A stretch of DNA of 64,000 nt from an uncultured Alphaproteobacteria bacterium (GTDB lineage: Bacteria; Pseudomonadota; Alphaproteobacteria; Rs-D84), in contig CATLAX010000002.1 in assembly GCA_949878575.1 (NCBI GenBank), positions 357,634 through 421,633 of the forward strand, given 5' to 3'. The notes beneath the pieces are model-generated. The model saw only the letters and a list, made by a program, of their open reading frames with translations, had not been told where the DNA came from and made no database searches. This document shows positions 10,170 to 56,656 of the stretch, in pieces (positions within the stretch are counted from its first letter, which is position 1; the number at the start of each line of letters is the position of its first letter). The position numbers and the translations under genes were made by a program.

Positions 10170-10200
10170 TAAAATCCCCCGTTTGGGGGGATTTTTATTA
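10170..10200. terminator. Hairpin terminator nearly identical to the one at 9701-9733 (AAAATCCCCCGTTTGGGGGGATTTTTATTA); terminates the large cysteine-rich gene
   Basis: Same GC stem/loop sequence as 9707-9724, A/T-run flanks; immediately after stop of ORF 10198-13686 (-). Confidence 0.55.
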
Positions 10201-13200
10201 GTCGGTCAGGGCCGTATCAATCAAATCGCCGTATTGCCCGACCATTTCGTTGCCGACCATACAGTTTAGATGGTTACCGACATCGGCCATAAAGGCGTCA
10301 TAGGCTTCTTTTTCAACCTTGTCCAGTTTGGCATCCTGGACGCTTTTGGTCGCCTGGTACGTCAGTATTCCACCAGCGGTGGCTGTAACCGCGCCACCAA
10401 CCAGATTTGTTATAGAACGGTTTCTGGCCGCTTTCTTTTTAGCGTCTTCATCGGGCTCCGCACTCAAACACGCCGCATGCAGTTTTTGCATAGCCGCATT
10501 AGCTGCCTTTTGCGCATCTTCAACAGCCTTTGACTTGGTGTTATAAGTTTTGTTCATCTCCGCCAAATTATCGTTATACGCTTTTACACTATCAGCATCA
10601 CTTTCGCATATCGAATATGTATACTGTACATCTGTCACATCCGAACGATCACAATCATCTGTTAAAGATATAGGTGTTCCTCTATGGTTCTTACAATTTT
10701 CAGGTTCGCCTTTTTTAAATTTAGCTCCACACGCAAACATACATGTTGTTTCTATCAGTGTAACTGTTTTGCCCGGATTTATAGCTTTTATTGTTGCTAT
10801 TCTGCGCGGATCTTGCAACGAAGTACAATTATCTGTTACGGTTTTTTCCTTGTCGGTTACAGCCGCCGGCATATCAGAAACAGCATTTTGATAGGCTATA
10901 TGTTTGTCGGTCACCTCACTGATAAGATCGGACATTTCCTCCTTTGCATCCCCTTTATTTTTGGAATACAGGTCTTTCAATTCACGGGCAGCTTTTACTG
11001 CACGAGTCATATAGGCGGATCTGTCTTCTGCCTTTGTTGATGTCATATAATTTGATGCGGCTGTTGTACATCTATTTACAATGTCACCGGCATCTTTAAT
11101 AGATGTGCTACCGTTTGTCCCCAGCAAACCGCCCAAGAAACCGCTGTTCTGCATTTTGTCCGTGGCAAAGCCACCCAGAACGCCGCTGCCAACCACGCCA
11201 GCCAGTGTCGTCCATGCTCTGGTGCGGCTGTTACCGCGGGCCGCATCACTGCGCGCGTCATCCGCAACCGAATTCGCCAGTTTTTCCAGCGCATCACCCG
11301 GTATCCATGAACCGCATGTAAACGCATCACCCGCCGCAAAGTATGCCGTTGACCAGTCAGAGCCCTTTGCTATAACGTCTTGGATCCGTTTGTCATCGGA
11401 CTGCAGCGTTACACGCACACGGCAGAACGATCCGTATATATCATTGCTGGCCGCGAACTGGTTCGGTTTCAGACCGGATACCGCATAACCCTTTGGCACC
11501 GTGTTTGATTTCAGCTTTACCCACAGGAACGTGCTGCCCAAATCATTTTTGCCCAGGATGCCGCCGTTGTTTGACGACATGCACTTGTTCTGTTCGCGTG
11601 TTAATTTCGCGTTGTACTTTGCCTGAGCCTCTTTTTCCAAATCATAAATCAGGTCTTTGAACAACGTGGACGCCGCCTGGGTTTCAACATACGTTGTGTA
11701 TGAAATCATCACAGGCTGGTCATAAATATTGCCCGCGGCATCAACCGTATAGCACACGCCCTGATCCGTGCCACCCTTTGACGTGCACAGCGCGTTGCCG
11801 TTTTCATCCACTGCCGCAACCTGTTCCGTGTTGGCGGTGATTGCCGTCGCGGCGCCGGCGTCAATCCAGCCTTCGCGTACGTTGCCGGCCCCGCCCCAGC
11901 TGGATGCGGACGAATTGTTCGCAATTTTCAACTTGTTGCGTTCAATGGCCAAATGTTCTTCGCATACTGACGCGGATTTTACCGTATCCAGGCACAGGCC
12001 AAGAACGATTGTGTAATCCAAAACGCCGCCCACCTTGTTCATGGATTTGTCAAAAGACGCCTCGCCGGTGTTGGTCAATGAAGAATACACATCCGTACGG
12101 TTACGATAGCAGTTCTGGTAATCCGCACCGCACATTGATTTTACGCAAGATGTCGCAACCGCCTGGCACTGGCGCTTCATCGTGGCGATGGCCGCGTCGC
12201 TGTAACTGCTGGCCAGGGTGGCGTTCAATGACGCAATCACGCCGATTGGGTCGTTGCCGCCTTCCTCATACTCAGGGAACAGCGTCGTAAACGCATCGTT
12301 GTTTATATATGTATAAGAATAGCTGCCCGTCTTGTTCGGGTTCGCCGCCGCATACTTGCAGTATGCGTCCGTGTTTACGACCGCCTCGCACCCGGTTTTC
12401 AATTCCGCGTACGTGGCGCTGTTGTTAATGGATTTGTCCTTGTTGCCGAACACCTGGCTGTAACAGGCCGCGCCGGAACCGGAACCGCAGATGCGCATTA
12501 CGCATGTCTTTATCGTGTCCGTGCATTTTTCCTTTGCCTTGGTGTCAAACTTGTCAACCAAATCGGCGATTTTTGCACGCATACCGGCATTCATGCGGGC
12601 GGCGTACGCCTCGTCGTAAATTTCTTCCTGATTATCCTCATCCTTTAACTGGGACGATGTCGGCATCTGGCCGTTGCCCAGAAACGTCGCATAGCAATAT
12701 TTGTTTGAACCGATTGTATCCATACAGGAATTCTTGATATATCCCGCGATGCTGGATTTGGATATAATATCCGTTCCAGCCAGCGACACCGGCAGGGCCG
12801 CAGTGCTTTCCGCCGTTGCGACGCCCTGATTAATTGACTCTACCAGGCTAACCGTCGTGGTTGTGCTGTTTTCATAGCATTTGTACGGATTTGTCGCACA
12901 CGCGTTCAAGATACACTGGTCAACAACCTTGTAACATGTTGAAACGGCGTTAACCGCGGCCAGCGCCGCGCCCTCTGCAATCATTTCGCCGATGCGCGAC
13001 GTGGCGGACGGCGTTGTGGACGTGTTCGCGGAACCGAACAGCTCAATCAATCCCTCTGACTGGCAGCGGGCCAGTGTGGAATCACAAAACACGCGCTGCT
13101 TTCTAAATTCCTTGTCCGTGGTACATAATTCAAAATCATTCCCGCAGACACTGTCCTTCTTTAAACATGCGGTATAGCGTTTTACACATGTGGACGTGTC

Positions 13201-13686
13201 GTATTTGTTGGATATGGCCGCACCGATAATTAACTGGCCCAGAACACTGCCGTCGGTCGGGTATGTGTAATCCGTAACCTCGCCATAACTGTTTTTAGAC
13301 GCAACCGTGGACAGCGCCGTGACAGTTCCCGTTCCAAACAGGCTGGATACTCCGGCGGTGCTGCACTGGGCCAGCGTGGACAAACACTGCGGCATTTTGC
13401 CGTGGAACAAAACCTTGGTCGTGCATTCTTCAAAGTCAGAGCCGCATGCGTCCCCACCCTTCATACAATTCGTGTACGCGTCAATGCACTCTGCATTCGC
13501 CAACAGGTTTGACGTCGTTGTCGTGGTGCCGCTGGTACTGGTGCCGGCGCCGGTAATGTATGACGTCATTGTCGGCATGCGCGACGACGCGGTGCCAATA
13601 ACACTGGGCCGCGCGGTCAGTGCATAAGATGCCTGAACCGTTGTCAAAACAGCCAGAAAACCAAACGATTTTGTAAAGAGACTCAT
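10198..13686 (-). CDS. Large (1162 aa) secreted cysteine-rich repeat protein, function unknown (candidate surface/adhesin or effector protein)
   Basis: N-terminal signal peptide (MSLFTKSFGFLAVLTTVQASYA), S/T-rich stretch, then two clear ~60-aa six-Cys repeats (C-x4-T-x-C-x6-C-x3-FE-x-CTT…C-x-STLA-x-C…LFG) and further paired-Cys modules; C-terminal Gly/Ala-rich hydrophobic segment. Confidence 0.7.
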   Translation of the reverse strand: MSLFTKSFGFLAVLTTVQASYALTARPSVIGTASSRMPTMTSYITGAGTSTSGTTTTTSNLLANAECIDAYTNCMKGGDACGSDFEECTTKVLFHGKMPQCLSTLAQCSTAGVSSLFGTGTVTALSTVASKNSYGEVTDYTYPTDGSVLGQLIIGAAISNKYDTSTCVKRYTACLKKDSVCGNDFELCTTDKEFRKQRVFCDSTLARCQSEGLIELFGSANTSTTPSATSRIGEMIAEGAALAAVNAVSTCYKVVDQCILNACATNPYKCYENSTTTTVSLVESINQGVATAESTAALPVSLAGTDIISKSSIAGYIKNSCMDTIGSNKYCYATFLGNGQMPTSSQLKDEDNQEEIYDEAYAARMNAGMRAKIADLVDKFDTKAKEKCTDTIKTCVMRICGSGSGAACYSQVFGNKDKSINNSATYAELKTGCEAVVNTDAYCKYAAANPNKTGSYSYTYINNDAFTTLFPEYEEGGNDPIGVIASLNATLASSYSDAAIATMKRQCQAVATSCVKSMCGADYQNCYRNRTDVYSSLTNTGEASFDKSMNKVGGVLDYTIVLGLCLDTVKSASVCEEHLAIERNKLKIANNSSASSWGGAGNVREGWIDAGAATAITANTEQVAAVDENGNALCTSKGGTDQGVCYTVDAAGNIYDQPVMISYTTYVETQAASTLFKDLIYDLEKEAQAKYNAKLTREQNKCMSSNNGGILGKNDLGSTFLWVKLKSNTVPKGYAVSGLKPNQFAASNDIYGSFCRVRVTLQSDDKRIQDVIAKGSDWSTAYFAAGDAFTCGSWIPGDALEKLANSVADDARSDAARGNSRTRAWTTLAGVVGSGVLGGFATDKMQNSGFLGGLLGTNGSTSIKDAGDIVNRCTTAASNYMTSTKAEDRSAYMTRAVKAARELKDLYSKNKGDAKEEMSDLISEVTDKHIAYQNAVSDMPAAVTDKEKTVTDNCTSLQDPRRIATIKAINPGKTVTLIETTCMFACGAKFKKGEPENCKNHRGTPISLTDDCDRSDVTDVQYTYSICESDADSVKAYNDNLAEMNKTYNTKSKAVEDAQKAANAAMQKLHAACLSAEPDEDAKKKAARNRSITNLVGGAVTATAGGILTYQATKSVQDAKLDKVEKEAYDAFMADVGNHLNCMVGNEMVGQYGDLIDTALTD

Positions 13687-13712
13687 TCTGCTCGCTCCAT
13701 ATTTTATATTTT

Positions 13713-13741
13713 ATTATATCATATAAAAGAGACGCAGACAA
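13713..13741 (-). promoter_or_regulatory. Candidate sigma70-type promoter for the cysteine-rich gene (TTGTCT-17-TATAAT on minus strand)
   Basis: Read on the minus strand: -35 TTGTCT, 17-nt spacer, -10 TATAAT, about 30 nt upstream of the ATG at 13686. Confidence 0.3.
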
Positions 13742-13767
13742 ACAAAATAATAAACTTTTGCGGTGTT

Positions 13768-15718: not shown

Positions 15719-15742
15719 ATTTACACCTTATACCACAAATGA

Positions 15743-17050
15743 CTATAAATTCAACCGGCGATATTTTGCACGGACTTTTTCCTGTATCTCGCTTATGGCG
15801 CGCATGTAATCCGCGGCGGTCGCGTTCTTGTTTGCCGCAACGGCCCCGAATATCTGCGCCGCCTGGGTGCCGGTGCCCTCGGCGGCGGACACGTACGGCA
15901 CCATGCGCCCCAGTTCGGACAAGGACAGGTCCAGAAAATTCGCCTTGCCGGCGGACGCATCCCAGTAATACTGTGAATTTACGGAATCTTCCAAACGCTT
16001 TTTTACAACCAGGCGCGGCGTAATTGAACCGGCAAACCCAACCGTTACAAACATTGCATCAATGCGTCCGTACGTCATGTCCAGCGTCTGATTTATTTTA
16101 AGCATGGCGACATCGCCGCCGTCATCAACGGACAGCCCCGCCAAAGTCATGTTTGTAACATACAGGTCGTCAACCGTCAGGCTTGAAAACTTTGCCGTAT
16201 CGGCCAAAGAGACATTGCCGGATATTTCCATGTTTTTGGAATCAGACGACAATGCGCCCGCAACGGTTGAAAACGACGCCGACAACTGCTTGTCAACAGA
16301 TGTTCGGTTTTGAAAAACAACCTTGTCCGCGACAATTTTTCCCACCCCCAGCGTTTCGTCAAAACTGATTGCGCGCCCGTTAACGAAAGCCCCGTCCAAA
16401 ATGTCATGTCCGCCCAAACTCAGCGCGGAGAGCATCGTCGCATCCGCACTGTCCGCGGACGGCACGCGCCACAGATACTTTGCATTGTCGCGCACAGCCC
16501 CGGTTGTTTCCACAATACCGTCCGCATCCGCCAACCCCAAATCCACCGTTGACGCGCGCCACGCGCCAAACGCCCCGTATGCGCGCCCGCGGTCCAAAAA
16601 TCCCATATTGTCGCCGCCCGTGTTTACAATTTCGCGCGTGCGCAGCGGACTGATTTTATCATCATTTAAAACAACCACGCCCTGCAACGTGGCAAGACCG
16701 CCGGCATCGGCCGATTTCAACACGCGCAGCTGGTATTCCGCGCCGCGCTGGGCGACCAGATCCGCCGACACGCCGTACGGCACCAAATCCGCCAGCGACA
16801 GGCGAACGATGTTTTTCCCGACCGGCGCCAGCAGTTCGTCGCGATTGGCGACAATATATCGTTCAAGCGCGGTCTGCACACCCTGCATCTGGCGCGTTAC
16901 GGCAACATTTTCCGCACGCCGCACCGCGTTTTCATGATATCTAAAAATGAACGGTATCACAATCATCGCCAGCGCAACGCTAAGCATCAGTTCAACCAGC
17001 ATTCCGCCCGCCTGATGCGGGGCGTTAAAAAACGTTTTTACTGTTTTCAT
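15743..17050 (-). CDS. Pilin-like paralog A: large protein with prepilin-type N-terminal hydrophobic helix
   Basis: Short basic leader ending in G-G then MLVELMLSVALAMIVIPFIF (class-III-signal-like, Glu near +5); a ~400-aa G/D/S/T-rich body sharing motifs with the next two genes; start chosen at Met 17050 (GGTGGAG RBS); ORF opens at 17080. Confidence 0.6.
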   Translation of the reverse strand: MKTVKTFFNAPHQAGGMLVELMLSVALAMIVIPFIFRYHENAVRRAENVAVTRQMQGVQTALERYIVANRDELLAPVGKNIVRLSLADLVPYGVSADLVAQRGAEYQLRVLKSADAGGLATLQGVVVLNDDKISPLRTREIVNTGGDNMGFLDRGRAYGAFGAWRASTVDLGLADADGIVETTGAVRDNAKYLWRVPSADSADATMLSALSLGGHDILDGAFVNGRAISFDETLGVGKIVADKVVFQNRTSVDKQLSASFSTVAGALSSDSKNMEISGNVSLADTAKFSSLTVDDLYVTNMTLAGLSVDDGGDVAMLKINQTLDMTYGRIDAMFVTVGFAGSITPRLVVKKRLEDSVNSQYYWDASAGKANFLDLSLSELGRMVPYVSAAEGTGTQAAQIFGAVAANKNATAADYMRAISEIQEKVRAKYRRLNL

Positions 17051-18242
17051 TGTCAAGCTCCACCCCGCCCCAGCCGGCATCGGTTATTTTTGAAAACTCA
17101 TTTTTTTTCACCGGCGCGGGATACTTTGCACGCTCTATGTTTAACTGTGAAAAACGTGGCGGCGTCGTGGACGGGAAAGTCCAACCACCGACCTTTAGCG
17201 GCGATTCCGTGGACATCAACAACTCGCCCGACAGAGTCAACCCGAAATTATCGTAAAAAACTATTTCATCCGCCGTAATAAACGGCGCCGCAACAGAACT
17301 AACAGAAATTCCGTCAAACCCGCTGATTGTGCGCGCAGTATCCGATTTTAAGGTCAAATCGCGCGCGACATTCACGCTGCGCCCAACGGTCGCACGGTCT
17401 GCAATTATCCGGCCGCGCGTCGTATAACCGCTGCCGTTTAACGTCTGGGCGGAAATGTTTTTAAACCCCGTCACGTCACCCGTAACACGCAGCGCCCCCA
17501 AATCCGCACGCCCGCCGTCAATGTTCGCACCGGACGAAAAATACGCGGCGTCCGCCATAACCTCCTGTGTTTCTATAAATGTGGCGGCGGCGGAATTTAC
17601 CTTTGCCGACTTTGCCGTAACGCCGCCAACATCGTAAACATTATGCCCGCCCATATTCAAATCGCGCATCATGACATTCAACATGTCTTCGCCGGACGTG
17701 CCGCGGTGCAGGTATTTTTCCGTGTCCATTCCGGAAACATCGCGCGACACCCTGTATATTATGTCGCCCGCGCTAAAATCAGGCGCCGTCACCGCCCATG
17801 ATGCGCCATACGCTATCCCATCAGATGCAACGACGGCCGCGTCAACCCCGATGCGCCGCGCAATATTTTCCGCACGCAGCACGTCACCACCGACATTAAA
17901 CGCCAGATACACATCCGTCACCGTCGCACCGGATACGGCATATTTGTCTATAAATCCGGCGACAGGCGCGCTTGAAATCATGGCCAAATCTTCGTCCGTC
18001 ATGCGAATCTGCGCCTCGTCCGGCCATGCGTCCGCATGCATGCGCACAAAGTTTAATGTGGCCCCGCGGACGTCAATTATATCTTTTGCCATTCGGGCAT
18101 CAGAGGCCATGCGCGCCGTCTGTAAAACCTGGCTGTATACGAACGGCGCGGCCATCGCAATTATGGCCATCGCCAACAGCACCTCCAGCATTCCGGCGCC
18201 GCATGATTCATCTTTAAAAATCAGCGTCTTACATGCAGCCAT
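17025..18242 (-). CDS. Pilin-like paralog B
   Basis: …ESCGAG-MLEVLLAMAIIAMAAPFVY N-terminus parallel to paralog A; shared internal motifs (DLNMGGHNVYDVGG etc.); overlaps upstream gene. Confidence 0.6.
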   Translation of the reverse strand: MAACKTLIFKDESCGAGMLEVLLAMAIIAMAAPFVYSQVLQTARMASDARMAKDIIDVRGATLNFVRMHADAWPDEAQIRMTDEDLAMISSAPVAGFIDKYAVSGATVTDVYLAFNVGGDVLRAENIARRIGVDAAVVASDGIAYGASWAVTAPDFSAGDIIYRVSRDVSGMDTEKYLHRGTSGEDMLNVMMRDLNMGGHNVYDVGGVTAKSAKVNSAAATFIETQEVMADAAYFSSGANIDGGRADLGALRVTGDVTGFKNISAQTLNGSGYTTRGRIIADRATVGRSVNVARDLTLKSDTARTISGFDGISVSSVAAPFITADEIVFYDNFGLTLSGELLMSTESPLKVGGWTFPSTTPPRFSQLNIERAKYPAPVKKNEFSKITDAGWGGVELDNENSKNVF

Positions 18243-19584
18243 CTCGTCCTTCCATCAAGCACTGTTTTATGTCTATCCTTTGTTCCAGACGATGCCAGTA
18301 GACATACTGGCAAATTATGTACTGCGACAGGCTGCGCTGATTATAATTGCCGTCCAAATCGGAAATCACATCCTTGCAGTCAACCATTTTCCCGGTATTG
18401 TCGGCCGGATCCGCAATAATTTCAAACGCACCGTTGTCAATGCCGTCAACGTACACGTCCGGCAGCACGGACGTCCCCGCCGGCCGCAAATCCAAAATAA
18501 CAGCACCTGTCCCCCCCGCCAGCAGCGCATCGGACGTCTGGTCCCGCATGGTGACATTTGACGCGACAAGGGTGTCCGTTTCCAGGCCGCTGCGCGAACT
18601 GTATTCCAATTCATCCGGACTGATGTAAACATCCTGGCCGCGGGCGGCGTTTATGTACGACGACACGTCCAGGCGTTCAACGGAAAAGTTCACACGGTCC
18701 GCCACGACATTCCCGCGCACATTCCATTTGCCGGGTCCGTTAAACCCCGTGCGACCGGACGTCATGGCAAAATCATAAACGGACGCCGCGCCGGCCACAA
18801 AATTACCAGTATCACCGAAACGCGCAATCGTGCGCGCATCCAGTCCGGACGCCGTCAAATTTCCCCGCGCCAGTGTCAGCGCCGCCTCGCCGGTGCGGCT
18901 TTGAAATATGGCGCGGTTCGCGGTCAGGCTGTCTATCTTGTTTTTTATTTTGCGCCCGTTTTCAGCCCCCGTCACAGACAGCGTGCCCGCCGTCATCGTA
19001 TCAAACACGCCGCGGCGCGCAACCACGGCACCGGCATTGTCAAGCACGAACCCGCCCATGTTTAAGTCCGTTAAGAAAGCCCCGGCGTCAATATCCGTTT
19101 CGTTACGGCGGACAACGTCAGAGAACCCATCGTCCAGGGCGATGCCGACACTGACCACGTCGCCGGATGCGTCCGCGTAAAAACCGATGCGCCGCGCCAG
19201 TTCCGCACGCGCCACCCCGGACAGATCGCCGCCGGACAGTTCCAGACGCGCCGATATTTCCGCATCGGTCTTGTTTATGACCAGCGCAATATCCTGGCCC
19301 AGCGCCGTGCGCGGCACAAACCCCAGCGGCAGGCCGTACGGTTCCAGCAAATCTGCAAAGTCATCACCCGTGACAACGGTTGTGTCATACCGGATATGGC
19401 GCGCGTTTTCACGAATAAAAATTCGCGCGGCGGTTGCGGCGACATCAACCTGGCGCGTGGTGGAATACATCTGGGCATCCCTGTCACCAACCGCCAGACG
19501 GGATGCAAAAAACGGAATAAACGCAAAAACCAGGGCCAGCGCCAGCAATGCCTGCAATAAAAAATTTCCGCTTTGCCTGGACAA
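18229..19584 (-). CDS. Pilin-like paralog C
   Basis: MSRQSG-NFLLQALLALALVFAFIPFF (6-aa leader ending in G, as in the type IV pilin at 21708); internal motif DLNMGGFVLDNAG shared with paralog B. Confidence 0.6.
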   Translation of the reverse strand: MSRQSGNFLLQALLALALVFAFIPFFASRLAVGDRDAQMYSTTRQVDVAATAARIFIRENARHIRYDTTVVTGDDFADLLEPYGLPLGFVPRTALGQDIALVINKTDAEISARLELSGGDLSGVARAELARRIGFYADASGDVVSVGIALDDGFSDVVRRNETDIDAGAFLTDLNMGGFVLDNAGAVVARRGVFDTMTAGTLSVTGAENGRKIKNKIDSLTANRAIFQSRTGEAALTLARGNLTASGLDARTIARFGDTGNFVAGAASVYDFAMTSGRTGFNGPGKWNVRGNVVADRVNFSVERLDVSSYINAARGQDVYISPDELEYSSRSGLETDTLVASNVTMRDQTSDALLAGGTGAVILDLRPAGTSVLPDVYVDGIDNGAFEIIADPADNTGKMVDCKDVISDLDGNYNQRSLSQYIICQYVYWHRLEQRIDIKQCLMEGRDGCM

Positions 19585-19743
19585 AATTCAATCCCCTCCG
19601 AACATACCCGCAGGATAGCAACAGAAAAAAAATATTGCAATCGGTTTTAAGATGCTTTAATCTGTGCCACGGACGCATGGCGGCAGCAAAGAAAATCCCC
19701 ATGCAGAGAAAAAGTATTTCCTGATAATCAAAGAAAAACATAA

Positions 19744-20040
19744 ATGCAGAACAAAAAAAATCAAACCTCTGTCGGCCAGATGATTCAACGTTGCCACAAA
19801 TGGCGTCAAAAAAGAAAACAGTACATGGATCAGGCGCGCCAGACAGCGGACGAAATAGAACGCGAACGCTTAATGCAGACGGCCGAACACTATGGCCGAA
19901 TCGTTGCCGCCGAACAGGGCAAAATTGATTCCACACGCGGCCCCGCGGACAAGACCGCCGCCCCCGCCCCGGCAGAAGAGGCGACCGATGCGGACGATGA
20001 TGAAAACGCGTTCCCCGATTTTATTTCAAATCTGAAATAA
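19744..20040 (+). CDS. Small charged protein, DUF4167-like (uncertain)
   Basis: …RLMQTAEHYGRIVAAEQ… resembles the conserved AE(N/H)Y…R core of alphaproteobacterial DUF4167 proteins; start uncertain. Confidence 0.4.
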   Translation: MQNKKNQTSVGQMIQRCHKWRQKRKQYMDQARQTADEIERERLMQTAEHYGRIVAAEQGKIDSTRGPADKTAAPAPAEEATDADDDENAFPDFISNLK

Positions 20041-32874: not shown

Positions 32875-33359
32875 TATTTTTTCCTGTTCTTGCGAAATTC
32901 GTCCAATGACACCACGCGCCCCGGATCCGGCACGGTCGCCCCCCTGTCGTCCAGCGGCAGTTCCATGTCGTTGTCCGCCGCAGGGCTGGCCTTTGGATGA
33001 AACGACAGCATAAAGTCAACGGACGGGTCCTTGAATTCAACCAGTGCGGAAAACGGCACGCGAATAAAGAACGGCCGGCCGTCAAAGGTCAACTGTACCC
33101 CGAACTCCTTGTCAGACACATGCAGGTTGGTATATGAATACTGCAACACAATGGTCATAATATCGGGATAGCGTATACGCAGAAAATCCGGCAAAGACAC
33201 GCCGGCCTCGCGCGTTTTGAACGTAATGAAAAAGTGCGTTCCATCGCCCAGACCGTTAATCTGCGCATGGGTCAGCGCGTCTTTGACCACGGTCTTTAAC
33301 GCATTGTCCAGTAATGTTTGATAATCAATCCTGCTCATATTTTTATCCCCGTACATCAA
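32874..33359 (-). CDS. sspB: ClpXP adaptor SspB (alphaproteobacterial type)
   Basis: …HFFITFKTREAGVSLPDFLRIRYPDIMTIVLQYSYTNLHVSD… closely matches the SspB-alpha core (HFYITFKT…ERYPEEMTIVLQHQF). Confidence 0.75.
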   Translation of the reverse strand: MMYGDKNMSRIDYQTLLDNALKTVVKDALTHAQINGLGDGTHFFITFKTREAGVSLPDFLRIRYPDIMTIVLQYSYTNLHVSDKEFGVQLTFDGRPFFIRVPFSALVEFKDPSVDFMLSFHPKASPAADNDMELPLDDRGATVPDPGRVVSLDEFRKNRKK

Positions 33360-34420
33360 ACTATATTATTTATAACGCCATCGTTGCAAGAAACAAATAA
33401 CGCGTCCGGCACGTCCGCAAATACGCGCGCATCCAGCCCCGTCGCCCACACCTGGGCATCGGCCGCCCCCAGCGCCGCAAACAACGCACCGCGCGCCGCG
33501 GCGTCCAGATGGGCCGCCGCCTCGTCCAGCAGTATTACGGGGCGCCGCGATGTTTTGGTATGCATCAGCCTTGCATGCGCCAAAATCAAATCCAGTAAAG
33601 TTGACTTCTGCTGGCCGGTGCTGGTGATATGCGCCGGCAGGTTCAGCCGTTTGTTAAACACACCAAAATCAGACTTGTGCGGGCCGTCAACAACCATTTT
33701 ATCCGCAACCAGACTGCGGTTTTCATGCAGGTATTCGCGATATTCATCCTCGGCCGACGGGCCGCGCGTCAGGACCATGTTTTCAACCATGCCCGCAACG
33801 GACACGGCGGCCCCGGCCAGGAAATAATTAACCTCGCCCGCGTATTGAATACGTGCGGCGGCAACGGCAACCGCGGCGGCGGCAATCTGCAAATCCAGCG
33901 CATCCAGCCACCGGTCGTCCGCACCGCTTTTTATTGCGGCCGCGCGTTCAGACATCAATTTTGAAAACCGCGCCACGCGCCCGCCGTGCGCACCGTCAAA
34001 CGCCGCCGCCAAACGGTCAAAGAACGCCCGACGGTCAGATGCGCCGTCCACGAACAGGCGGTCCTCGCGCGGGGTAACCCACACCACGCGAACACGCCCC
34101 CCCAGCGACGACAACGCCGCCGCGTCCCCGTCAACGCGCGCGCGACGGTTTGCGTCGCCGGCGGCATAAGTTACGGCGATTTCCGTATCATCGGCCAGCA
34201 CCCCGTGCACAGAAAACCCGCCAGGACCGCCAAAGCGTGCAATGTCCGGCATTGCGGCGCCGCGCATTCCGCGGTCGCCGGCCAGGATTGATATAGCCTC
34301 CAGCACGGCGGTCTTGCCCGCGCCGTTGGGGCCGGTAATGATAATATTGCGGTGCGCGCCCGCATCAATGCGGCCGAATTCATGATTCCTAAAATCTGTC
34401 AGTGTCAGGCGCGTTATCAT
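33356..34420 (-). CDS. recF: DNA replication and repair protein RecF
   Basis: MITRLTLTDFRNHE… GPNGAGKTAVLEAI Walker A, ABC-type signature; start set at internal Met (ORF opens at 34669). Confidence 0.9.
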   Translation of the reverse strand: MITRLTLTDFRNHEFGRIDAGAHRNIIITGPNGAGKTAVLEAISILAGDRGMRGAAMPDIARFGGPGGFSVHGVLADDTEIAVTYAAGDANRRARVDGDAAALSSLGGRVRVVWVTPREDRLFVDGASDRRAFFDRLAAAFDGAHGGRVARFSKLMSERAAAIKSGADDRWLDALDLQIAAAAVAVAAARIQYAGEVNYFLAGAAVSVAGMVENMVLTRGPSAEDEYREYLHENRSLVADKMVVDGPHKSDFGVFNKRLNLPAHITSTGQQKSTLLDLILAHARLMHTKTSRRPVILLDEAAAHLDAAARGALFAALGAADAQVWATGLDARVFADVPDALFVSCNDGVINNIV

Positions 34421-34477: not shown

Positions 34478-34512
34478 AAAAAAACGCCGCCGAAATATTT
34501 CCCGGCGGTGTT
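34478..34512 (-). terminator. Rho-independent terminator after the VirD4-like gene (hairpin then T7 on minus strand)
   Basis: CGGCGG/CCGCCG stem with the loop followed by TTTTTTT on the minus strand; lies between the VirD4-like stop and the recF start. Confidence 0.55.
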
Positions 34513-34515
34513 TGG

Positions 34516-36726
34516 CTATCCCAGATTTCTTGTCTCGTGCGTCTGGGGGTCGTATATGCGCGGCGCGCCGCCATACCCCATTGCCGCATGATGCGACGGG
34601 ATTAAAAATTCCGGCAACGGCGACGATTCCCCCATCGCCATGTATCCCGCCAGGCGCGGATCCTGCCACGCCTGTTGATGATCGGCCTCAATCGGGCGGT
34701 TATAAAACCCCTGGAATATGACCAGCTGTTTTTTCTTGTCCAGCTTCATGATGTCCATAGGCGTGTACAGCAATTCTTCGCCGGTTTCCTCTTTTTCCTT
34801 GCCATCCGGGCCTTTAACCGTCTTTATCTTCATCTTGTACCCCATCATGTCCGAGAAGCGTTTTGCCGTATCCGGGTCGTTCTGGCGCAGGACTATTTTG
34901 GCCGCGGTTGTGGATATGATTGTCGCGGCGGCATCCTGGCCGTATTTTTCCGCAATCTGGTGCAAATCCTGGCCTATAATCAGGTATGATATTTTTTGGC
35001 CGCGCCCCAGGTCGGGTCCCTGAATCACCGCCTGCAGCTTTTGCATTTTGGGCATTTCATCCAACAGGAACAGCACCGGATACGGGCCCAAGCGCTGGCC
35101 GTCGCGAACGGTTTCCGGCGCGTTGGCCAGCAGATACGACGACATTAACTCTATAAATATTCCGGTAATGGGATTCAACGCCTCGGCATCAACCATGTTG
35201 ATGGACAGGTATACCGTCACGGGCTTGATTTTTCCGTCACGCGGGTCAACCAGGCCGCGCATATCTGAAAAATGGAAATCAGAATGGCTGGTGCGGTTGC
35301 GCACGGCCGCGTTTCTAAATATGGACAATCCGGCCATCATTGTTGACAGAATACTGCCGCGTTCCTTGTCCGGGGTGTTGGCCAGCTGCGTTAATTCCAA
35401 AATCGCGCGGTGGGCGTATGAATAACGGCGCGCCTCTTCCACCGCGGCCAAAAACAAATCCTTCATCGGATCCGCCATCATCACCATCTGGTCGCCCTGG
35501 CGGCGGCGGTTTTCCAAATCCTGGGCGATGGCAATCTGCGACGCGTTCAGCCAGTCCAGAATCATGGACAGCGACGCCTCTTTGCCCTTCCACGCGGGCG
35601 GTATGTTTTCCCACGTGCCGATATGAACATAGTTCATCGCGTTTAATTCCCCGCGCGCCAACAGCGCACTGGCCGCGTATGCGTTCGGATCGTTTATCAT
35701 CGCCAGATAATAGTCCGACAGAACGGTCGCATCCTCTGCATCAAACGTGCCGGCGGAAATGCGCGAATAGAAATAATCGTCAGCCTTGGCCCGCTCTATC
35801 TTTGACACGATGAACTGAACCATCCCGGACAACGCCGCGCGCCCGGATATTGTCCAGTGCGGATCCGCGGACGAACTCTGCTTGTCCGCAATCAGAACGT
35901 TGCAGATTGAATCAATGTACAAGTCACGCTGTTCGGTGTTAAACGGCACGTGTTCAGGCGACAGCGGATTCCACGACGGATAATATATGCCGCGTTCCGG
36001 ATCATCCTGGCCCGCCCAGTTCATAATGAACACCGGCCCAACCGTCGCACGGTACGCGGACGATTTCTGTTTCAATTCCGGTTTCGGATCGTTGATAATC
36101 ATTGAAACGTTCGGACAGTCAAATATTGTCGGCAAAACGACACCCTGTGTTTTACCGGTCCCGGGGGGCGCCACGCACAATGCGGACAGACATTCATCCA
36201 TCATCAGCGGCTTTTTCTTAAAATAGCCCAGCACCATCATGAACCCATCCCACAGACCCATTTTCTTAATGTCTTCCAGCGTCGCCTTGTTGGATGATTT
36301 TGCATCAAACTTGTCATTGCCGTGCGGATTAAATTCCTTTACCAACGTGGCGTCCGCCAGGAAATAATACGCAATTATCGGCAACAGCGGCGCCATGCAC
36401 GGCAGGTCGGTCCGCGCAACGCACCGGCCAATCCACGCCGGGATTTCCGCCACCACCGACATCCCCAGCGTTGTCACCATGTTGCCTAAATATATCCACA
36501 TCCACCGCCACGACGCCGGCGAAAAGCCGTAACGCCAGAAATGTTCTATTATAAACGACAAAGCAAACGCCAGCGCCGCCGCGCACCATATGCCGATGGC
36601 CCAGCGCAGCTGCCAAAATATGGATGCCAGCGGCGTGCGTTCGTGTTCCTTGTACGCGCTGGACTTGAAAATATTGAGACCCTTGGACGAACCGCCGGCC
36701 GATAAAATCTTGAACTTCTCTGCCAT
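34516..36726 (-). CDS. virD4: Type IV secretion coupling protein (VirD4/TraG/TraD family ATPase)
   Basis: 736 aa; N-terminal TM helices; Walker A CVAPPGTGKTQGVVLPT; Walker B LFLLDEMPKM; overall TraG/VirD4 architecture. Confidence 0.85.
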   Translation of the reverse strand: MAEKFKILSAGGSSKGLNIFKSSAYKEHERTPLASIFWQLRWAIGIWCAAALAFALSFIIEHFWRYGFSPASWRWMWIYLGNMVTTLGMSVVAEIPAWIGRCVARTDLPCMAPLLPIIAYYFLADATLVKEFNPHGNDKFDAKSSNKATLEDIKKMGLWDGFMMVLGYFKKKPLMMDECLSALCVAPPGTGKTQGVVLPTIFDCPNVSMIINDPKPELKQKSSAYRATVGPVFIMNWAGQDDPERGIYYPSWNPLSPEHVPFNTEQRDLYIDSICNVLIADKQSSSADPHWTISGRAALSGMVQFIVSKIERAKADDYFYSRISAGTFDAEDATVLSDYYLAMINDPNAYAASALLARGELNAMNYVHIGTWENIPPAWKGKEASLSMILDWLNASQIAIAQDLENRRRQGDQMVMMADPMKDLFLAAVEEARRYSYAHRAILELTQLANTPDKERGSILSTMMAGLSIFRNAAVRNRTSHSDFHFSDMRGLVDPRDGKIKPVTVYLSINMVDAEALNPITGIFIELMSSYLLANAPETVRDGQRLGPYPVLFLLDEMPKMQKLQAVIQGPDLGRGQKISYLIIGQDLHQIAEKYGQDAAATIISTTAAKIVLRQNDPDTAKRFSDMMGYKMKIKTVKGPDGKEKEETGEELLYTPMDIMKLDKKKQLVIFQGFYNRPIEADHQQAWQDPRLAGYMAMGESSPLPEFLIPSHHAAMGYGGAPRIYDPQTHETRNLG

Positions 36727-36758
36727 TGTGTTATGATTATATCAGAAAAAAACACAAA

Positions 36759-37415
36759 ATGAAAAACATTCCGCGAATTTTTGTCGGCGACGACGTGACA
36801 CCGGGCGCGGTCATGCCCGCACCGCGCGATGCGGCGCACTATCTGTCGCGCGTCATGCGGCGCCGCGATTTTCTGGCCTTTGGCGCTGGCGCGGAATACA
36901 ACGCGGTATTAAGCGACGACGACAAGACGTTTATAATCGGGGACAAAACCGCGCACAGCGACCCGTCCGGCAACGTGACACTGATGTTCGCCCCGATTAA
37001 ACGAACGGACGATTTAATAAACATGGCGACCCAGATGGGCGCCGCAGCACTGCAGCCCGTGATTACAGAACGCACAGTTGCATCCCACACAAACTGGGCC
37101 CGCATGCGCAAAATCGCGGTTGAGGCGGCAGAACAGTCAAACAGAAACAGCGTGCCGGAAATATTGCCGCCGGTATCGTTTACGGATTTGGATTTGGCCG
37201 GCATCGCATTTGCGGATGAACGCGCGGCCCACGGCGCGACGCCGCCCGTGCGGGCGCGCACATCGCGCGTTCTTGTCGGGCCAGAGGGCGGATTTTCCCC
37301 CGCGGAATTCGCCGCACTGGATGCGGCCGGGGCGCATGGAATATCACTCGGGACGACAATACTGCGGGCGGAACTGGCCGCGGCGGTCGCACTGTCACGG
37401 ATAACAACGGAATGA
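36759..37415 (+). CDS. rsmE: 16S rRNA (uracil1498-N3)-methyltransferase RsmE
   Basis: PRIFV… N-terminus and C-terminal SPOUT motif VLVGPEGGFSPAE; start at internal Met. Confidence 0.85.
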   Translation: MKNIPRIFVGDDVTPGAVMPAPRDAAHYLSRVMRRRDFLAFGAGAEYNAVLSDDDKTFIIGDKTAHSDPSGNVTLMFAPIKRTDDLINMATQMGAAALQPVITERTVASHTNWARMRKIAVEAAEQSNRNSVPEILPPVSFTDLDLAGIAFADERAAHGATPPVRARTSRVLVGPEGGFSPAEFAALDAAGAHGISLGTTILRAELAAAVALSRITTE

Positions 37416-52488: not shown

Positions 52489-53260
52489 TTTTGCCTCCTT
52501 CGCTGCGCTGTACCACCTCTGTCGCGACACGCAGATACGCCTGGGCGCCGGTGGAGTTAAAATCGTAAAACAATGCCGGCTTGCCGTGGCTGGGCGCCTC
52601 TGACACGCGCACATTGCGCGGAACAACCGTTTTAAACACCTTGTCGCCGAATGATTCACGTACGTTGTCGTCAACCTCCCGCGTTAGGCCGTAACGCCGG
52701 TCATACATCGTCAGCAGCACACCCAGAATTTCCAATTCCGGATTCCATTCCGCACGCACGGCCTTTATCGTGTTCATTAACAGCTGCACCCCCTCCAACG
52801 CAAAGAATTCACACTGTAGTGGAATAATCACCTCGTTCGCGGCCGTCAATGCATTAATCGTCAACTGGCCCAATGCAGGGGGACAATCCAGCAAAATATA
52901 ATCATAATGCTGTAAAATCGGCGCCAGCGCATCACGCAAGCGAAACGCCCGGTTTTCAACATCCAACAAATCTATTTCCAACCGCGCCAAGGCCTGGGAC
53001 GCCGGCATTAAATGCAACCCCGGAACCGCCGTGGACAAAATATTGTCTGCGGCAGGCGCCGTACCCATTATCACGCCGTAAACACTTTGCCGGCACGATT
53101 CGCGCACGAAACCCAATCCGGTTCCGGCATTGCCCTGTTGATCCAAATCAATCAACAGCACGCGCTTTTTTATCGCCGCCAGTGATGCGCCAATATTAAT
53201 TGCAGTTGTGGTCTTGCCCACGCCCCCCTTTTGATTTGCAAATGCTATTATCTTTGTCAT
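52481..53260 (-). CDS. parA: Chromosome partitioning ATPase ParA (Soj)
   Basis: Deviant Walker A NQKGGVGKTTTAINI; 259 aa. Confidence 0.95.
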   Translation of the reverse strand: MTKIIAFANQKGGVGKTTTAINIGASLAAIKKRVLLIDLDQQGNAGTGLGFVRESCRQSVYGVIMGTAPAADNILSTAVPGLHLMPASQALARLEIDLLDVENRAFRLRDALAPILQHYDYILLDCPPALGQLTINALTAANEVIIPLQCEFFALEGVQLLMNTIKAVRAEWNPELEILGVLLTMYDRRYGLTREVDDNVRESFGDKVFKTVVPRNVRVSEAPSHGKPALFYDFNSTGAQAYLRVATEVVQRSEGGKNV

Positions 53261-53410
53261 TCTTCCTTTCCGATATTTTTCGTTTTTAGAGTATAAAATC
53301 CCCCAGCACCAGTCAAGGCATTAAAATATAAAAATATTTTCTGTATAAAAACATTGAAAAACAATAAGTTATACAATATTTCATATGAAACAAAACGAAT
53401 CGCCCGTTTT

Positions 53411-53439
53411 TTTGACAAACATCACATCTTGTGCTATCC
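53411..53439 (+). promoter_or_regulatory. Near-consensus sigma70-type promoter (TTGACA-17-TATCCT)
   Basis: -35 TTGACA at 53411-53416, 17-nt spacer, -10 TATCCT at 53434-53439; about 30 nt upstream of the AAGGAG RBS and GTG start. Confidence 0.45.
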
Positions 53440-53468
53440 TTAATAGGATATATTTAAGGAGAAAGATT

Positions 53469-54419
53469 GTGAAAATTAAATTTAAAAAGCTATTCAAATG
53501 GTCTTTGCCTGCAATTATTATAACAACCGGCGCGTTCGTTTCTTCGCACACATCCGCCAACATTCAAAACAAGGAAGAAGTACAAAAAGCGGCAACAACC
53601 ATAAAAGACAACCGTCCGGAAATAAGAATCAGATATGATACCATTTATCTTACGGAAGAATATCTGGATACAAATAAAAGCATCAATCTGGGACTATTCT
53701 TACCAACCGACAACAGCGTCAGCATGAAACATTTTGTTCCGGTTGACAGCACAAAACGCGTAATGAATTTTGCCCAAACCCACAACAGCCAGCGCGCGGC
53801 TATTTTGCGTCACGAGCTGGAGCACGGCCGCAAGGCGCACCTGTGGGCAAACACAGAAGACAGGGCGCCGTTCGTACGCGGCCAGATAGCATGCATGAAC
53901 GAGGTTATGGCCCCGGCCGGAGAGGTTATAGAAAGCGCCGAGAACGAATGGCTGACCGGCATTCCGACCCAGGGTCCGGACATGTTGAAAAAAACAACCA
54001 GCGCCATTTTAGACGAAAACAGAAAAACACCTTTTGGCTTAATGGGCGGGGTTGACTTTACAAACCAGAAAATTGCGGATATTGTTTTAAAATACGCAAT
54101 AGATAAATATATCAGGGAGTTTAACCGCGGCGTTTACAAATGGCCTGTACGAAAAAAACTGGACGCGAACAGAAAACATATCAATTACAAACCAAACAAA
54201 GAATGCAATCCCATGGACAAAATAATGTTCTTTCCGGAAAGCGGCGACTGGAGCCAGATGTTTGCATACAAAACCAAAAGCGGCAAAAATATAAACATAT
54301 GGAAAAGTGCATCAGAAAAAATGCGCCGCGAGGTACGGGAACGTGTTGATTCTGCGACAAACTCATTACTAAAGCCCGGCGAATACTTAACTGCTTTTAA
54401 AACACCGGAAAAAAAGTAA
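53469..54419 (+). CDS. Secreted hypothetical protein with HExxH zinc-metalloprotease-like motif (lower GC)
   Basis: GTG start after AAGGAG RBS gives signal peptide VKIKFKKLFKWSLPAIIITTGAFVSSHTSA; HELEH motif in …AAILRHELEHGRKAHLW…; AT-rich codon usage. Confidence 0.6.
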   Translation: MKIKFKKLFKWSLPAIIITTGAFVSSHTSANIQNKEEVQKAATTIKDNRPEIRIRYDTIYLTEEYLDTNKSINLGLFLPTDNSVSMKHFVPVDSTKRVMNFAQTHNSQRAAILRHELEHGRKAHLWANTEDRAPFVRGQIACMNEVMAPAGEVIESAENEWLTGIPTQGPDMLKKTTSAILDENRKTPFGLMGGVDFTNQKIADIVLKYAIDKYIREFNRGVYKWPVRKKLDANRKHINYKPNKECNPMDKIMFFPESGDWSQMFAYKTKSGKNINIWKSASEKMRREVRERVDSATNSLLKPGEYLTAFKTPEKK

Positions 54420-54430
54420 AATTAAAAACT

Positions 54431-54468
54431 TACCGGTAATTTCATGTGAAATTACCGGTGTTTTTGTA
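54431..54468. terminator. Long perfect hairpin terminator (ACCGGTAATTT-CATGTG-AAATTACCGGT then T-run); overlaps the 3' end of rsmG
   Basis: 11-bp stem read directly; follows the HExxH gene stop. Confidence 0.55.
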
Positions 54469-55012
54469 TAATTATTATAAAACCGTCACCGGTCTTTGAC
54501 GGAATAAGATCATAATCAAAAGAATATTTCTTTTTGGCCTCTTTAACCTCAGCCTCTATTTCCCGGCCTTTTAATAAAAAAAGCCGGCATTTTGTTTTAA
54601 AAACATAATCCAAAATTTTTACAAGTGGCGCAAATGCACGTGCTGTAAATATTGTGTTGCCGGCATTTACCGGTGTTTTCGCAATAAAATCTTCAACCCG
54701 GCCGTGATAAATCGTTAAATTATCCAGGGCCAGATTTGTTTTTACATCATTCAAAAAGGCGACCTTTTTACCGATTGATTCAATACATGTCACGCGCCAG
54801 CCCAAAATAGCCAGCACAACACCGGGAAAACCGGCACCACTGCCCAAATCTATGATATTTGCATCCCGCGGCAAAACATCCGCCAACTGGGCACTGTCGG
54901 CAAAATGCCGCGTTTCAATATCTTTTAACGTACTGGGCGCAACCAGGTTCATCTTTTCAGACCACCGGCGCAGCATCGCAGCATACTGTTCAAATTTCAC
55001 TTTATTATTCAT
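54452..55012 (-). CDS. rsmG: 16S rRNA (guanine527-N7)-methyltransferase RsmG (GidB)
   Basis: SAM-binding motif IIDLGSGAGFPGVVLAI; 186 aa. Confidence 0.9.
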   Translation of the reverse strand: MNNKVKFEQYAAMLRRWSEKMNLVAPSTLKDIETRHFADSAQLADVLPRDANIIDLGSGAGFPGVVLAILGWRVTCIESIGKKVAFLNDVKTNLALDNLTIYHGRVEDFIAKTPVNAGNTIFTARAFAPLVKILDYVFKTKCRLFLLKGREIEAEVKEAKKKYSFDYDLIPSKTGDGFIIIIQKHR

Positions 55013-55039
55013 AAGGTTTATTGTAGCATAATATTTGTC

Positions 55040-56656
55040 ATGAAAAAAATAGAAACTTTATTTGTTGGAACCGGTCTGATTGTCGCATTGGCGGCGGCCG
55101 GAATTTTGGTTTGGAATTCATTGGCACCACGCGGCGCCACGCAACCGCACCAGTATCCCACGACAAAATACGGTGCGTTTTTGGCGGCCCAGCACGCCAT
55201 TTATGTAAATGATTTTGAGCGGGCGGCGGAATTTTCATCCGTTTTGTCCGACAAGGATTATGCCGTCGTTCAAAACACCCGCATGATGTCAGAGTTTTTA
55301 AGCGGACGCATGCCTGCGGACGCAAAAAAGCTGAGCGATGAAAAAAATGCGGCGGCAGGACTGATTTATGATGCGTATCTGGTCGGGCAGGGTGACTGGG
55401 AATCATTGTACAAACGGCATAAAAAAGACATGTCGGCATTGTCAGCACCACTGCGCATATGGTCGTCGGTCGCAACGGGACGCAGCGACGATGCGCTAAA
55501 ATTTGTTGAAAAACTGCCGACAAATGAATCATGGAAGGCGTTCATGCGCGGGCAAATTCACGCACAAAGCGGCGACAATGCGGCGGCCGCCAAAGAATTT
55601 GCCACCGTGGCGCCAGATTTTATGAACATAAACGATTATTTGTATGTAATGTCGTTTTACCGTCACAACAACATGGACAAAGATGCAGACAAACTGCGCC
55701 GTGAATTCACATCGCGACCGGGCGGAATGTACATGCTGGATTACGATTTTGTACCCGACTGGTCACAGTACGCCGGGAACAACAACGCACTGGCGTTCAG
55801 TCTGGTTCAAAACGTGTCGCACACCCAGATTATGATGTATTCCGATCTGGCGCTGTTGCTGTTGCGGTTTGCTCAGCTGGCCGGACCGGAATACGCGGCA
55901 TCGGGCGATGCGGTCAACTATTACCTGGGCCAGTATTTTTATAACAATTCCGGAGATTGCGAAAAATATTTCGGCATGATAGACACCCACAGTCCGTTTT
56001 ATCTGTTTGGTGTTTTGCGCATGACGGACAAAGACGGCGACTTTGACAGACTGGCCGCGGCGTTTGAACAAAACCCGCTGTTCGTGCCGGGCGCAAACAG
56101 GTTAATTGCGCATTATATAGCAACCGGGAACCGCCGCGGCGCCATGCGCGTGGCGGAACGCGCGATGGAAAATGAAAACATAACACCGGCCGGCCGGGGC
56201 TATTTCCTAAAATCGCGCGCGCATATAAACTTTGTGTTCGGCGACACGGCCGCAGCCCAGGCAGATTTAAGGGCGGCGTCTGACGCATTGCCGATGGACG
56301 GTGAAATTCTGGCGCTGCAGGCAAAGATATGGGCGGCGGAAAACCGTGAGATAGAAAACGCGTACGAATACGCAATGGGTCTGGTGCGTCAAAACCCGAC
56401 TGATGTGGCCGCATGGGATGTACTGGGGCGGGTTGTCGCCGTCCGCGAAGGGGCGCCGGCCGCACTGGAATTAATATCGCGCGTGGGCGAAATATCAAAT
56501 TCATGTTCGTCGCTGTTTGAACAGCTGGGGGACCTGTACGTCCAGACGGGGAATACAAAGCTGGCCCGGGATGCATACTCGCGCGCCATTGATCTGGCCG
56601 ACGACGGTCTGACCGTTGTGCCGGTGGTTGAAAAAAAGATAAGGAATTTAAAATGA
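55040..56656 (+). CDS. Large TPR-like repeat protein with N-terminal TM/signal anchor
   Basis: 538 aa, helical repeat content, hydrophobic N-terminus; 4-nt overlap with gpsA start. Confidence 0.55.
   Translation: MKKIETLFVGTGLIVALAAAGILVWNSLAPRGATQPHQYPTTKYGAFLAAQHAIYVNDFERAAEFSSVLSDKDYAVVQNTRMMSEFLSGRMPADAKKLSDEKNAAAGLIYDAYLVGQGDWESLYKRHKKDMSALSAPLRIWSSVATGRSDDALKFVEKLPTNESWKAFMRGQIHAQSGDNAAAAKEFATVAPDFMNINDYLYVMSFYRHNNMDKDADKLRREFTSRPGGMYMLDYDFVPDWSQYAGNNNALAFSLVQNVSHTQIMMYSDLALLLLRFAQLAGPEYAASGDAVNYYLGQYFYNNSGDCEKYFGMIDTHSPFYLFGVLRMTDKDGDFDRLAAAFEQNPLFVPGANRLIAHYIATGNRRGAMRVAERAMENENITPAGRGYFLKSRAHINFVFGDTAAAQADLRAASDALPMDGEILALQAKIWAAENREIENAYEYAMGLVRQNPTDVAAWDVLGRVVAVREGAPAALELISRVGEISNSCSSLFEQLGDLYVQTGNTKLARDAYSRAIDLADDGLTVVPVVEKKIRNLK

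Follow-up and report, generated by a model that had tools for sequence, protein, structure and literature searches.

How does a gene for the coupling ATPase of a type IV secretion system (T4SS) come to stand by itself among housekeeping genes, and what could it be doing there? The question is raised by a 64,000-nucleotide stretch of DNA from an uncultured alphaproteobacterium (assembly GCA_949878575.1, contig CATLAX010000002.1; hereafter the window), which carries, at positions 34516..36726 of the minus strand, an intact open reading frame (ORF) that starts with ATG and encodes a 736-residue type IV coupling protein (T4CP) of the VirD4/TraG/TrwB superfamily. The gene turns out to belong to the core chromosome of a whole clade of gut bacteria, where it is kept under strong selection, and it is not truly an orphan, since the genus also holds at least VirB3 and VirB4. 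With a probability that we put at roughly 0.65, the protein would serve as receptor for the substrates and as ATPase in a T4SS that is dispersed but fixed in the chromosome, and that delivers macromolecules to the partner of its host, Candidatus Enterousia.

At the superfamily level, the protein is a type IV coupling protein. Three Pfam families match it above their gathering thresholds (PF02534 T4SS-DNA_transf, E 2.5e-48; TraG-D_C, E 2.8e-19; TrwB_AAD_bind, E 9.4e-18), the scores for PF02534, PF10412 and PF12696 being 165.5, 64.7 and 69.7 bits against cut-offs of 20.1, 20.5 and 22, and the matched domains take in regions of the TraM-recognition and DNA-binding types. An N-terminal membrane domain (residues 1-131; 36334..36726, minus strand) was delimited from hydrophobic windows and from an AlphaFold2 (AF2) model, with hydrophobic segments at residues 40-64 and 110-129 and helices at residues 23-66, 70-85, 95-104 and 108-131. 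The Walker A motif APPGTGKT (residues 186-193; 36148..36171, minus strand) and the Walker B motif LFLLDE (residues 552-557; 35056..35073, minus strand) are both evident in the sequence and in the alignment of orthologues. In the AF2 model (pLDDT 83, pTM 0.72), the helical membrane region of residues 23-131 is followed by a RecA-like nucleotide-binding domain in two pieces (residues ~150-260 and ~486-690), into which is inserted, in the manner of the TrwB-type fold, an enlarged all-alpha domain (residues ~264-478; 35293..35937, minus strand), recognizable as an all-helical stretch of the model and through the TrwB_AAD_bind match; a short C-terminal tail ends the chain. The all-alpha domain, of ~215 residues, and the membrane region, of ~130 residues, are presumably both larger than those of TrwB.

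A Foldseek search of the PDB with this model placed three coupling proteins at the top: Cagbeta of H. pylori (8DOL; E 8e-19), TrwB of plasmid R388 (1E9R, 1E9S, 1GL6; E 1e-12, target TM 0.74-0.76) and DotL of Legionella (6SZ9; E 1e-6). All have the same fold and an N-terminal membrane anchor, with only 13-15% sequence identity to the Enterousia protein, and a search of the PDB by sequence alone (phmmer, E 0.01) gave no match. Pfam, motifs and fold thus agree on what the original prediction had described, a VirD4/TraG-superfamily ATPase of 736 residues with N-terminal membrane segments and Walker A and B motifs. The name "VirD4/TraG-type" fits in a loose sense only. The protein scores far below every NCBIfam equivalog or subfamily cut-off (141 versus 250 bits for CD1115, 104.5 versus 674 for IncP TraG, and 91 and 63 for VirD4 models whose cut-offs are 728 and 681), and so falls outside the curated VirD4 (NF010472, NF010424), IncP/Ti TraG (NF010450, NF010453, TIGR02767), F-type TraD (TIGR02759) and CD1115 groups; it belongs to no curated subfamily.

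The distribution of the gene is that of a core gene. An exhaustive search returned 4510 relatives of the protein. More than 120 protein clusters at 79-92% identity are all from uncultured Alphaproteobacteria, and at least 587 loci in GTDB species-representative genomes carry the gene; the best 80 of these, at 70-90% identity, are named Candidatus Enterousia or uncultured Alphaproteobacteria and come from the guts of humans, chicken, sheep, deer, buffalo and yak. Judged by these sequence relatives, the host of the window is Candidatus Enterousia, a gut alphaproteobacterium of the order Rs-D84. Enterousia genomes measure ~0.75-1.0 Mb and lack respiration, the tricarboxylic acid cycle, most biosynthesis and the standard transporters, and the bacteria have been proposed to be obligate symbionts or parasites, that is, dependent on a partner (PMC12306168). 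More distant relatives, at 47-51% and 36-39% identity, are likewise surrounded by housekeeping genes, and within 10 kb of the coupling-protein gene neither a VirB nor a relaxase domain is encoded; a 47%-identical one is from a metagenome-assembled genome annotated as Rickettsiales. Because these intermediate relatives are solitary as well, the solitary chromosomal placement must be old in the lineage. On the 36-39% branch, the coupling-protein gene is directly preceded, on its own strand, by a pentapeptide-repeat gene (330-345 codons), with 2-5 bp between this and the coupling-protein start (L090 9006..9998; L091/L092 8958..9995), and its product may be a partner or regulator of the coupling protein.

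Selection on the gene was examined in 85 orthologous loci, of which 77 yielded extracted and aligned genes of 728-789 codons, the remaining 8 being covered by tblastn over the whole query. The Walker A motif, APPGTGK[T/S], is found in all 85 orthologues and LFxxDEMP in all 77 of those aligned, where D556, E557, M558 and P559 are invariant; K192 and D556 remain so down to 30% identity. The median ratio of nonsynonymous to synonymous substitution rates (dN/dS) is 0.077 (189 pairs, dS 0.05-1.5); where two proteins are identical, their genes still diverge at synonymous sites. The gene is therefore a clade-wide, vertically inherited component of the core chromosome under strong purifying selection. 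Its composition (GC 0.543, and 0.688 at third codon positions, GC3) resembles that of its neighbours, as the comparison of GC content suggested by the original prediction was able to show, and this host-like composition means that the gene was not recently acquired.

Nothing else of the kind is encoded nearby. The ~57 ORFs of the window were scanned with Pfam and NCBIfam, and none carries a VirB, Tra, relaxase, integrase or transposase domain; when the VirB2-B11 and MobA proteins of two plasmid operons were used as tblastn queries, the coupling protein was the sole match in the window. What surrounds it is housekeeping: infB, nusA, lptFG, lptD, rlmN, dnaX, der, an RpoH-like sigma factor gene, bamB, pnp, sspB and recF, together with rsmE, rluB, accBC, mreB, infC, macAB-tolC, parB, gidB, gpsA, mutS, truB, rpsO and metG. 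The only tRNA genes, at 51.4 and 61.8 kb, are not beside the coupling-protein gene. A complete conjugative operon just outside the window would have made of it an ordinary gene of a mobile element, and strains with the same gene order have, in the ~7.5 kb past the right edge, queH, fabD, fabG, mnmG and an Mrr-like nuclease gene instead. The earlier observation that no virB or tra genes lie near the gene thus stands. The Pfam-less ORFs of the window (10198-19936 and others) were considered as possible T4SS genes and rejected, both databases having given no T4SS-type match.

The isolation of the gene in the window is real, but "orphan" was an overstatement, for congeners carry virB3 and virB4 elsewhere among their housekeeping genes. 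In a close Enterousia relative (locus L009), whose coupling protein is 88% identical, tblastn revealed a VirB4 homologue of 805 residues, with 31% identity over 800 residues to a plasmid VirB4 (E 5e-123); upstream of its gene lies one for a VirB3-like protein (Pfam VirB3, E 2.7e-4). The stop codon of this virB4 lies 5.6 kb from the start of the coupling-protein gene on the same contig. VirB4 equals the coupling protein in its spread through the clade (more than 120 clusters, 78-96% identity), and several clusters of the two proteins have longest contigs of identical size (418,380, 344,892, 201,727 and 11,957 bp). In 80 further metagenome virB4 loci (63-92% identity, contigs of up to 935 kb), the gene is part of a conserved module in which ychF and a SufD-like gene point away from each other, the latter leading into virB3, virB4 and a third gene, c3, with variable housekeeping flanks beyond; the VirB3 hidden Markov model (HMM) matches the small ORF in 68 of the loci, with E values of ~1e-8. 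The c3 product is a secreted protein of ~205 residues with conserved cysteines and an invariant HEDxH, which fits HExxH (L093 12419..13036 and ~77 other loci). Its gene always follows virB4, is sometimes duplicated and is restricted to the clade (793 relatives). No Pfam family matches c3, and its AF2 model, though confident (pLDDT 87), has no fold match in the PDB, so that the protein is recognizable neither as VirB5 nor as VirB8 and was rejected as a candidate for either.

The coupling protein and VirB4 share their three best plasmid relatives, those of Microvirga pMVF16-3, Erythrobacter aureus and Sphingosinicella p1, at 31-32% identity. All three plasmids carry contiguous virB2-B11-virD4 operons, and in two of them a MobA/MobL relaxase gene lies in the stretch examined. 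Since both proteins point to the same three plasmids, a single VirB/D4-type system seems to have been their common ancestor, first domesticated and later scattered. The original prediction had held that a stand-alone virD4 is characteristic of genomes with scattered T4SS loci, such as those of obligate intracellular Alphaproteobacteria, and this is supported by the reduced genomes of Enterousia and the virB3-virB4 pair that congeners carry elsewhere.

The arrangement around the gene bears on how it is expressed and on how it came to be isolated. On its 5' side lies rsmE, encoding a 16S rRNA methyltransferase (36759..37415, plus strand; Pfam Methyltrans_RNA, E 1.4e-33). The two genes are divergent, and the spacer from the ATG of the coupling-protein gene (36726) to that of rsmE (36759) measures 32 bp (36727..36758), in keeping with the figure of about 30 bp first given. 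A promoter scan detected within it an extended -10 element, TGATATAAT (36744..36736, minus strand; 10/12 with TG), 9 nucleotides upstream of the ATG. The element, as TTCTGATATAAT at this distance from the start codon, is at least 95% conserved in 46 species, while the window belongs to a subclade in which a 26-bp deletion has cut the spacer from ~58 to 32 bp. The coupling-protein gene thus appears to have a dedicated promoter with a very short leader. A TPR-rluB-rsmE block is divergent from the gene in essentially every species of the 85-locus set, and overlapping divergent promoters may be the reason why the junction stays unbroken.

The 3' side behaves quite differently. Directly after the stop codon lies a terminator-like hairpin of 9 pairs (6 of them GC) followed by the T-run CGTTTTTTTA (34487..34508, minus strand), and then recF (33356..34420, minus strand; Pfam SMC_N), whose ATG is at 34420, so that recF does lie downstream after a terminator, as had been noted. 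It does so in this genome only. The set of 85 Enterousia species shows more than 20 kinds of neighbour on the 3' side, every one of them housekeeping, among them porin-rpoH, bamB, infB-nusA, pnp, sspB-recF, accCB, infC, macB, der, pheST and ileS. Because these neighbours vary among species, recF owes its place here to the accidental history of one genome; conservation is limited to the rsmE side, and recF is neither a feature nor a part of the system. The 3' end of the coupling-protein gene (34487..34516, and the same position in L001-L086) adjoins a recurrent rearrangement breakpoint, the rsmE side being fixed, and, to judge from these 3' neighbours, the small genomes of Enterousia are extensively block-shuffled. 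In 19 species (L011, L012, L016, L022, L024, L030, L033, L040, L041 and L043-45 among them), the coupling-protein gene is followed on the same strand by genes for a weak-TPR protein of ~420 residues and an LpoB-like lipoprotein of ~246 residues, both of which are missing from the window. These two co-oriented families (c21 and c23) were considered as T4SS parts and rejected as such.

On these grounds, we propose the following model. Anchored in the inner membrane and presumably hexameric, the coupling protein would be an ATPase that picks up substrates in the cytoplasm and passes them to a type IV secretion channel. Its core gene would be transcribed from a conserved promoter that it does not share with the divergent rsmE, and would end at its own terminator, while at least virB3, virB4 and c3 form a separate conserved module elsewhere among housekeeping genes. 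The coupling protein and VirB4 would derive from one conjugative system of the VirB/D4 type, which was domesticated before the repeated rearrangement of these small genomes pulled its genes apart. The coupling protein would cooperate with the VirB3/VirB4 module in a complete channel, whose most likely role would be to export proteins, and possibly nucleoprotein, to the interior or the surface of the partner cell that supports these metabolically dependent bacteria.

Several observations weigh against this model. The remaining T4SS parts were sought with HMMs and hhalign profiles for VirB2, B5, B6, B8, B9, B10 and B11, built from four plasmid operons (profiles of four sequences are weak for the less conserved subunits), among 2856 ORFs and 140 ORF families from 167 Enterousia loci, whose unique sequence amounts to ~170-300 kb, or 20-35% of a genome. 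The search for virB genes and a relaxase that the original prediction had called for was thus successful in part: VirB3 and VirB4 were found in congeners, but neither in the window nor in this sample was there a credible match to any of these seven subunits, nor was a relaxase found in either, or a defined effector substrate in the sample. The sole VirB8 match was truB, at 34% probability, and was rejected. The VirB11-like matches in relatives are a 545-residue T2SSE ATPase of the PilB/GspE type, encoded beside a PilO-like gene and belonging to a separate pilus system; they are not VirB11. The presence of virB4 in the window's own genome is presumed from its congeners. The NCBIfam scores, all far below cut-off, mean that the protein is not close to any characterized coupling protein, and the literature that was searched for a T4SS in Enterousia or Rs-D84 offered no description of one; the study of the Enterousia genomes makes no mention of T4SS (PMC12306168).

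Several other explanations deserve consideration. Coupling proteins typically ride on mobile elements, and this one has no other transfer genes near it in the window, in keeping with the earlier suggestion that it might be a decaying remnant of an integrated conjugative element or of a plasmid. The suggestion is contradicted by the occurrence of the full-length gene, with the same junction to rsmE, in 587 or more species-representative genomes, by its dN/dS of 0.077 and intact catalytic motifs, by a composition equal to that of its neighbours, by the lack of any integrase, relaxase, transposase or adjacent tRNA gene in the window, and by housekeeping flanks in every species. On conservation, selection, composition and flanks taken together, we reject it as highly improbable. 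A subtler possibility is that the outer-membrane channel was lost during genome reduction and that the coupling protein, VirB3, VirB4 and c3 survive as an exapted ATPase module of the inner membrane with some other task, for instance powering transport together with a type IVb-like pilus, or acting as an FtsK-like translocase of DNA or protein at the inner membrane. It would account for the finding of VirB3, VirB4 and the coupling protein only, with VirB6-B11 absent from the sampled sequence, and for a conserved partner, c3, without a match in Pfam or among PDB folds; a system resembling type IV pili does occur in the same genomes, with three prepilin-like proteins of 405-451 residues, a PAP_PilO-like protein and the 545-residue T2SSE ATPase. 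However, the sample covers a minor part of a genome and was searched with profiles of low sensitivity, and these genomes keep a full outer membrane (lptD, bamB, skp, tolC, lpxC/D/K), so that a canonical channel is feasible. We consider such an exaptation unlikely. Taken to its extreme, it would leave Enterousia with nothing but the energizing core of a T4SS at the inner membrane (VirD4, VirB4 and VirB3, plus a periplasmic c3 with HExxH) and without a canonical VirB6-B10 channel, possibly coupled to a type IVb-like pilus with giant PilV-like pilins, as a minimal hybrid translocon for feeding on the partner or injecting into it. We know of no precedent for such a hybrid of a T4SS core and a pilus, and we offer the idea as a long shot.

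The same ancestry also allows for a domesticated DNA-transfer system, in which the coupling protein would connect a chromosomal relaxase-DNA complex to the T4SS for conjugation-like export or release, of which the gonococcal genetic island of Neisseria is an example, rather than for the secretion of effectors. The nearest relatives are, after all, the coupling proteins of plasmid virB/virD4 operons, two of them accompanied by a MobA/MobL relaxase gene in the stretch examined, and the Pfam domains of the Enterousia protein include the TraM-recognition and DNA-binding types of region mentioned above. Against this, neither the window nor the sampled loci yielded a relaxase, an oriT-associated gene or a MobA-like sequence, and a metabolically dependent genome of 0.8 Mb is more plausibly expected to keep a device for interacting with its host. 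DNA transfer seems to us unlikely as well. Finally, the protein might act in defence against phages, within a system whose central ATPase is HerA/FtsK-like. The model has a distant fold likeness to the HerA ATPases of defence complexes (E ~1e-6) and the sequence a weak PADLOC match to mad8 (23 bits), but T4CP structures give much better matches (E 1e-19 to 1e-12), the PADLOC match is confined to the P-loop region and is given by VirB4 as well, and the gene, which has no neighbours of the defence type, belongs to the core rather than to an island. Pfam, fold and PADLOC results together lead us to reject this explanation, to which we attach next to no weight.

The secretion system that we favour, with a coupling protein and channel genes dispersed over a chromosome, finds its closest analogue in logic in the rvh T4SS of the Rickettsiales. 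There, rvhD4 normally lies at the end of an rvhB8-B11 cluster or operon. The RvhD4 coupling protein binds effectors, which are then delivered (PMC11077975). In both cases, a chromosomal, vertically inherited coupling protein has been retained under selection in a reduced-genome, host-dependent alphaproteobacterium whose T4SS loci are split among housekeeping genes. The likeness to obligate intracellular Alphaproteobacteria invoked by the original prediction therefore holds as far as the scattering goes, but is looser than was stated, given the usual place of rvhD4 in a cluster, whereas the Enterousia gene stands alone with its own promoter and terminator. The Enterousia system is not a member of the rvh group. 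Its host belongs to Rs-D84, a gut lineage outside the Rickettsiales that is not intracellular as far as is known, and the neighbours of its coupling-protein gene in 85 species are rsmE and variable housekeeping genes. The duplicated B4, B6, B8 and B9 that mark the rvh system did not appear in the sampled 20-35% of a genome, where no second VirB4 was seen; only c3 is sometimes duplicated.

The comparison with the closest sequence relatives runs along other lines. These are the coupling proteins of megaplasmids of Sphingomonadales and Hyphomicrobiales (Erythrobacter aureus, Sphingosinicella p1 and Microvirga pMVF16-3), with ~31% identity over residues 135-712 of the Enterousia protein. On the plasmids, the coupling-protein gene is the last of a contiguous virB2-B11 operon, whereas in Enterousia it is solitary and chromosomal. 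The plasmid operons lie near genes for a DnaB-like helicase, a primase, Rad52 and a single-stranded DNA-binding protein, and two of the three also near those for a MobA/MobL relaxase and a topoisomerase.

The Enterousia gene thus encodes a divergent, lineage-specific coupling protein of what is probably a scattered T4SS, for which the literature searched holds no description in this abundant gut clade. A coupling protein conserved along with VirB3 and VirB4 in so stripped a genome is a concrete candidate for the device through which Enterousia depends on its partner, in parallel with the rvh system of the Rickettsiales. Epibiotic Patescibacteria, which need secretion systems, provide a further parallel. 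Enterousia is widespread in the guts of humans, poultry and ruminants, with genomes below 1 Mb (PMC12306168). The locus also illustrates how, where a genome is often rearranged, an operon derived from conjugation can come apart until every gene stands alone behind a promoter of its own. For annotation, the lesson is that an apparently orphan virD4 should not be taken for the debris of a mobile element.

A few observations made along the way concern other parts of the window and of the clade. Three large adjoining ORFs of 451, 405 and 445 codons (15743..19584, minus strand), without Pfam or NCBIfam match, were examined as possible VirB genes and rejected, the N-termini of their products being prepilin-like instead (G|xxxxE/Q followed by a hydrophobic helix). 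In relatives (L060 14061..21368; L093 19163..22415), the prepilin-like genes adjoin those for the PAP_PilO-like protein and the T2SSE ATPase, and the set looks like a type IVb-like pilus; by their size and N-termini, the large prepilin-like proteins may resemble the PilV adhesins of the R64 thin pilus. At 10198..13686 of the minus strand is encoded a secreted, Cys-rich protein of 1162 residues, with a signal peptide and a C-terminal hydrophobic segment and again no Pfam or NCBIfam match, possibly a surface protein or adhesin. Two records with typical Enterousia loci are labelled otherwise, OZ246409.1 (L040) as "Muribaculaceae bacterium", with a 716,531-bp "chromosome 1", and CAVGNU010000002.1 (L044) as "Bacteroides fragilis"; both are probably mislabelled or contaminated bins, and OZ246409.1 may be a complete Enterousia chromosome. 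Lastly, in the region of ~52700..55100, where the GC content drops to 0.42-0.45, the cumulative GC skew reaches its minimum at ~54-55 kb, beside gidB and parB, the latter joined in relatives by parA. The chromosome probably has its replication origin here, ~18 kb from the coupling-protein gene.

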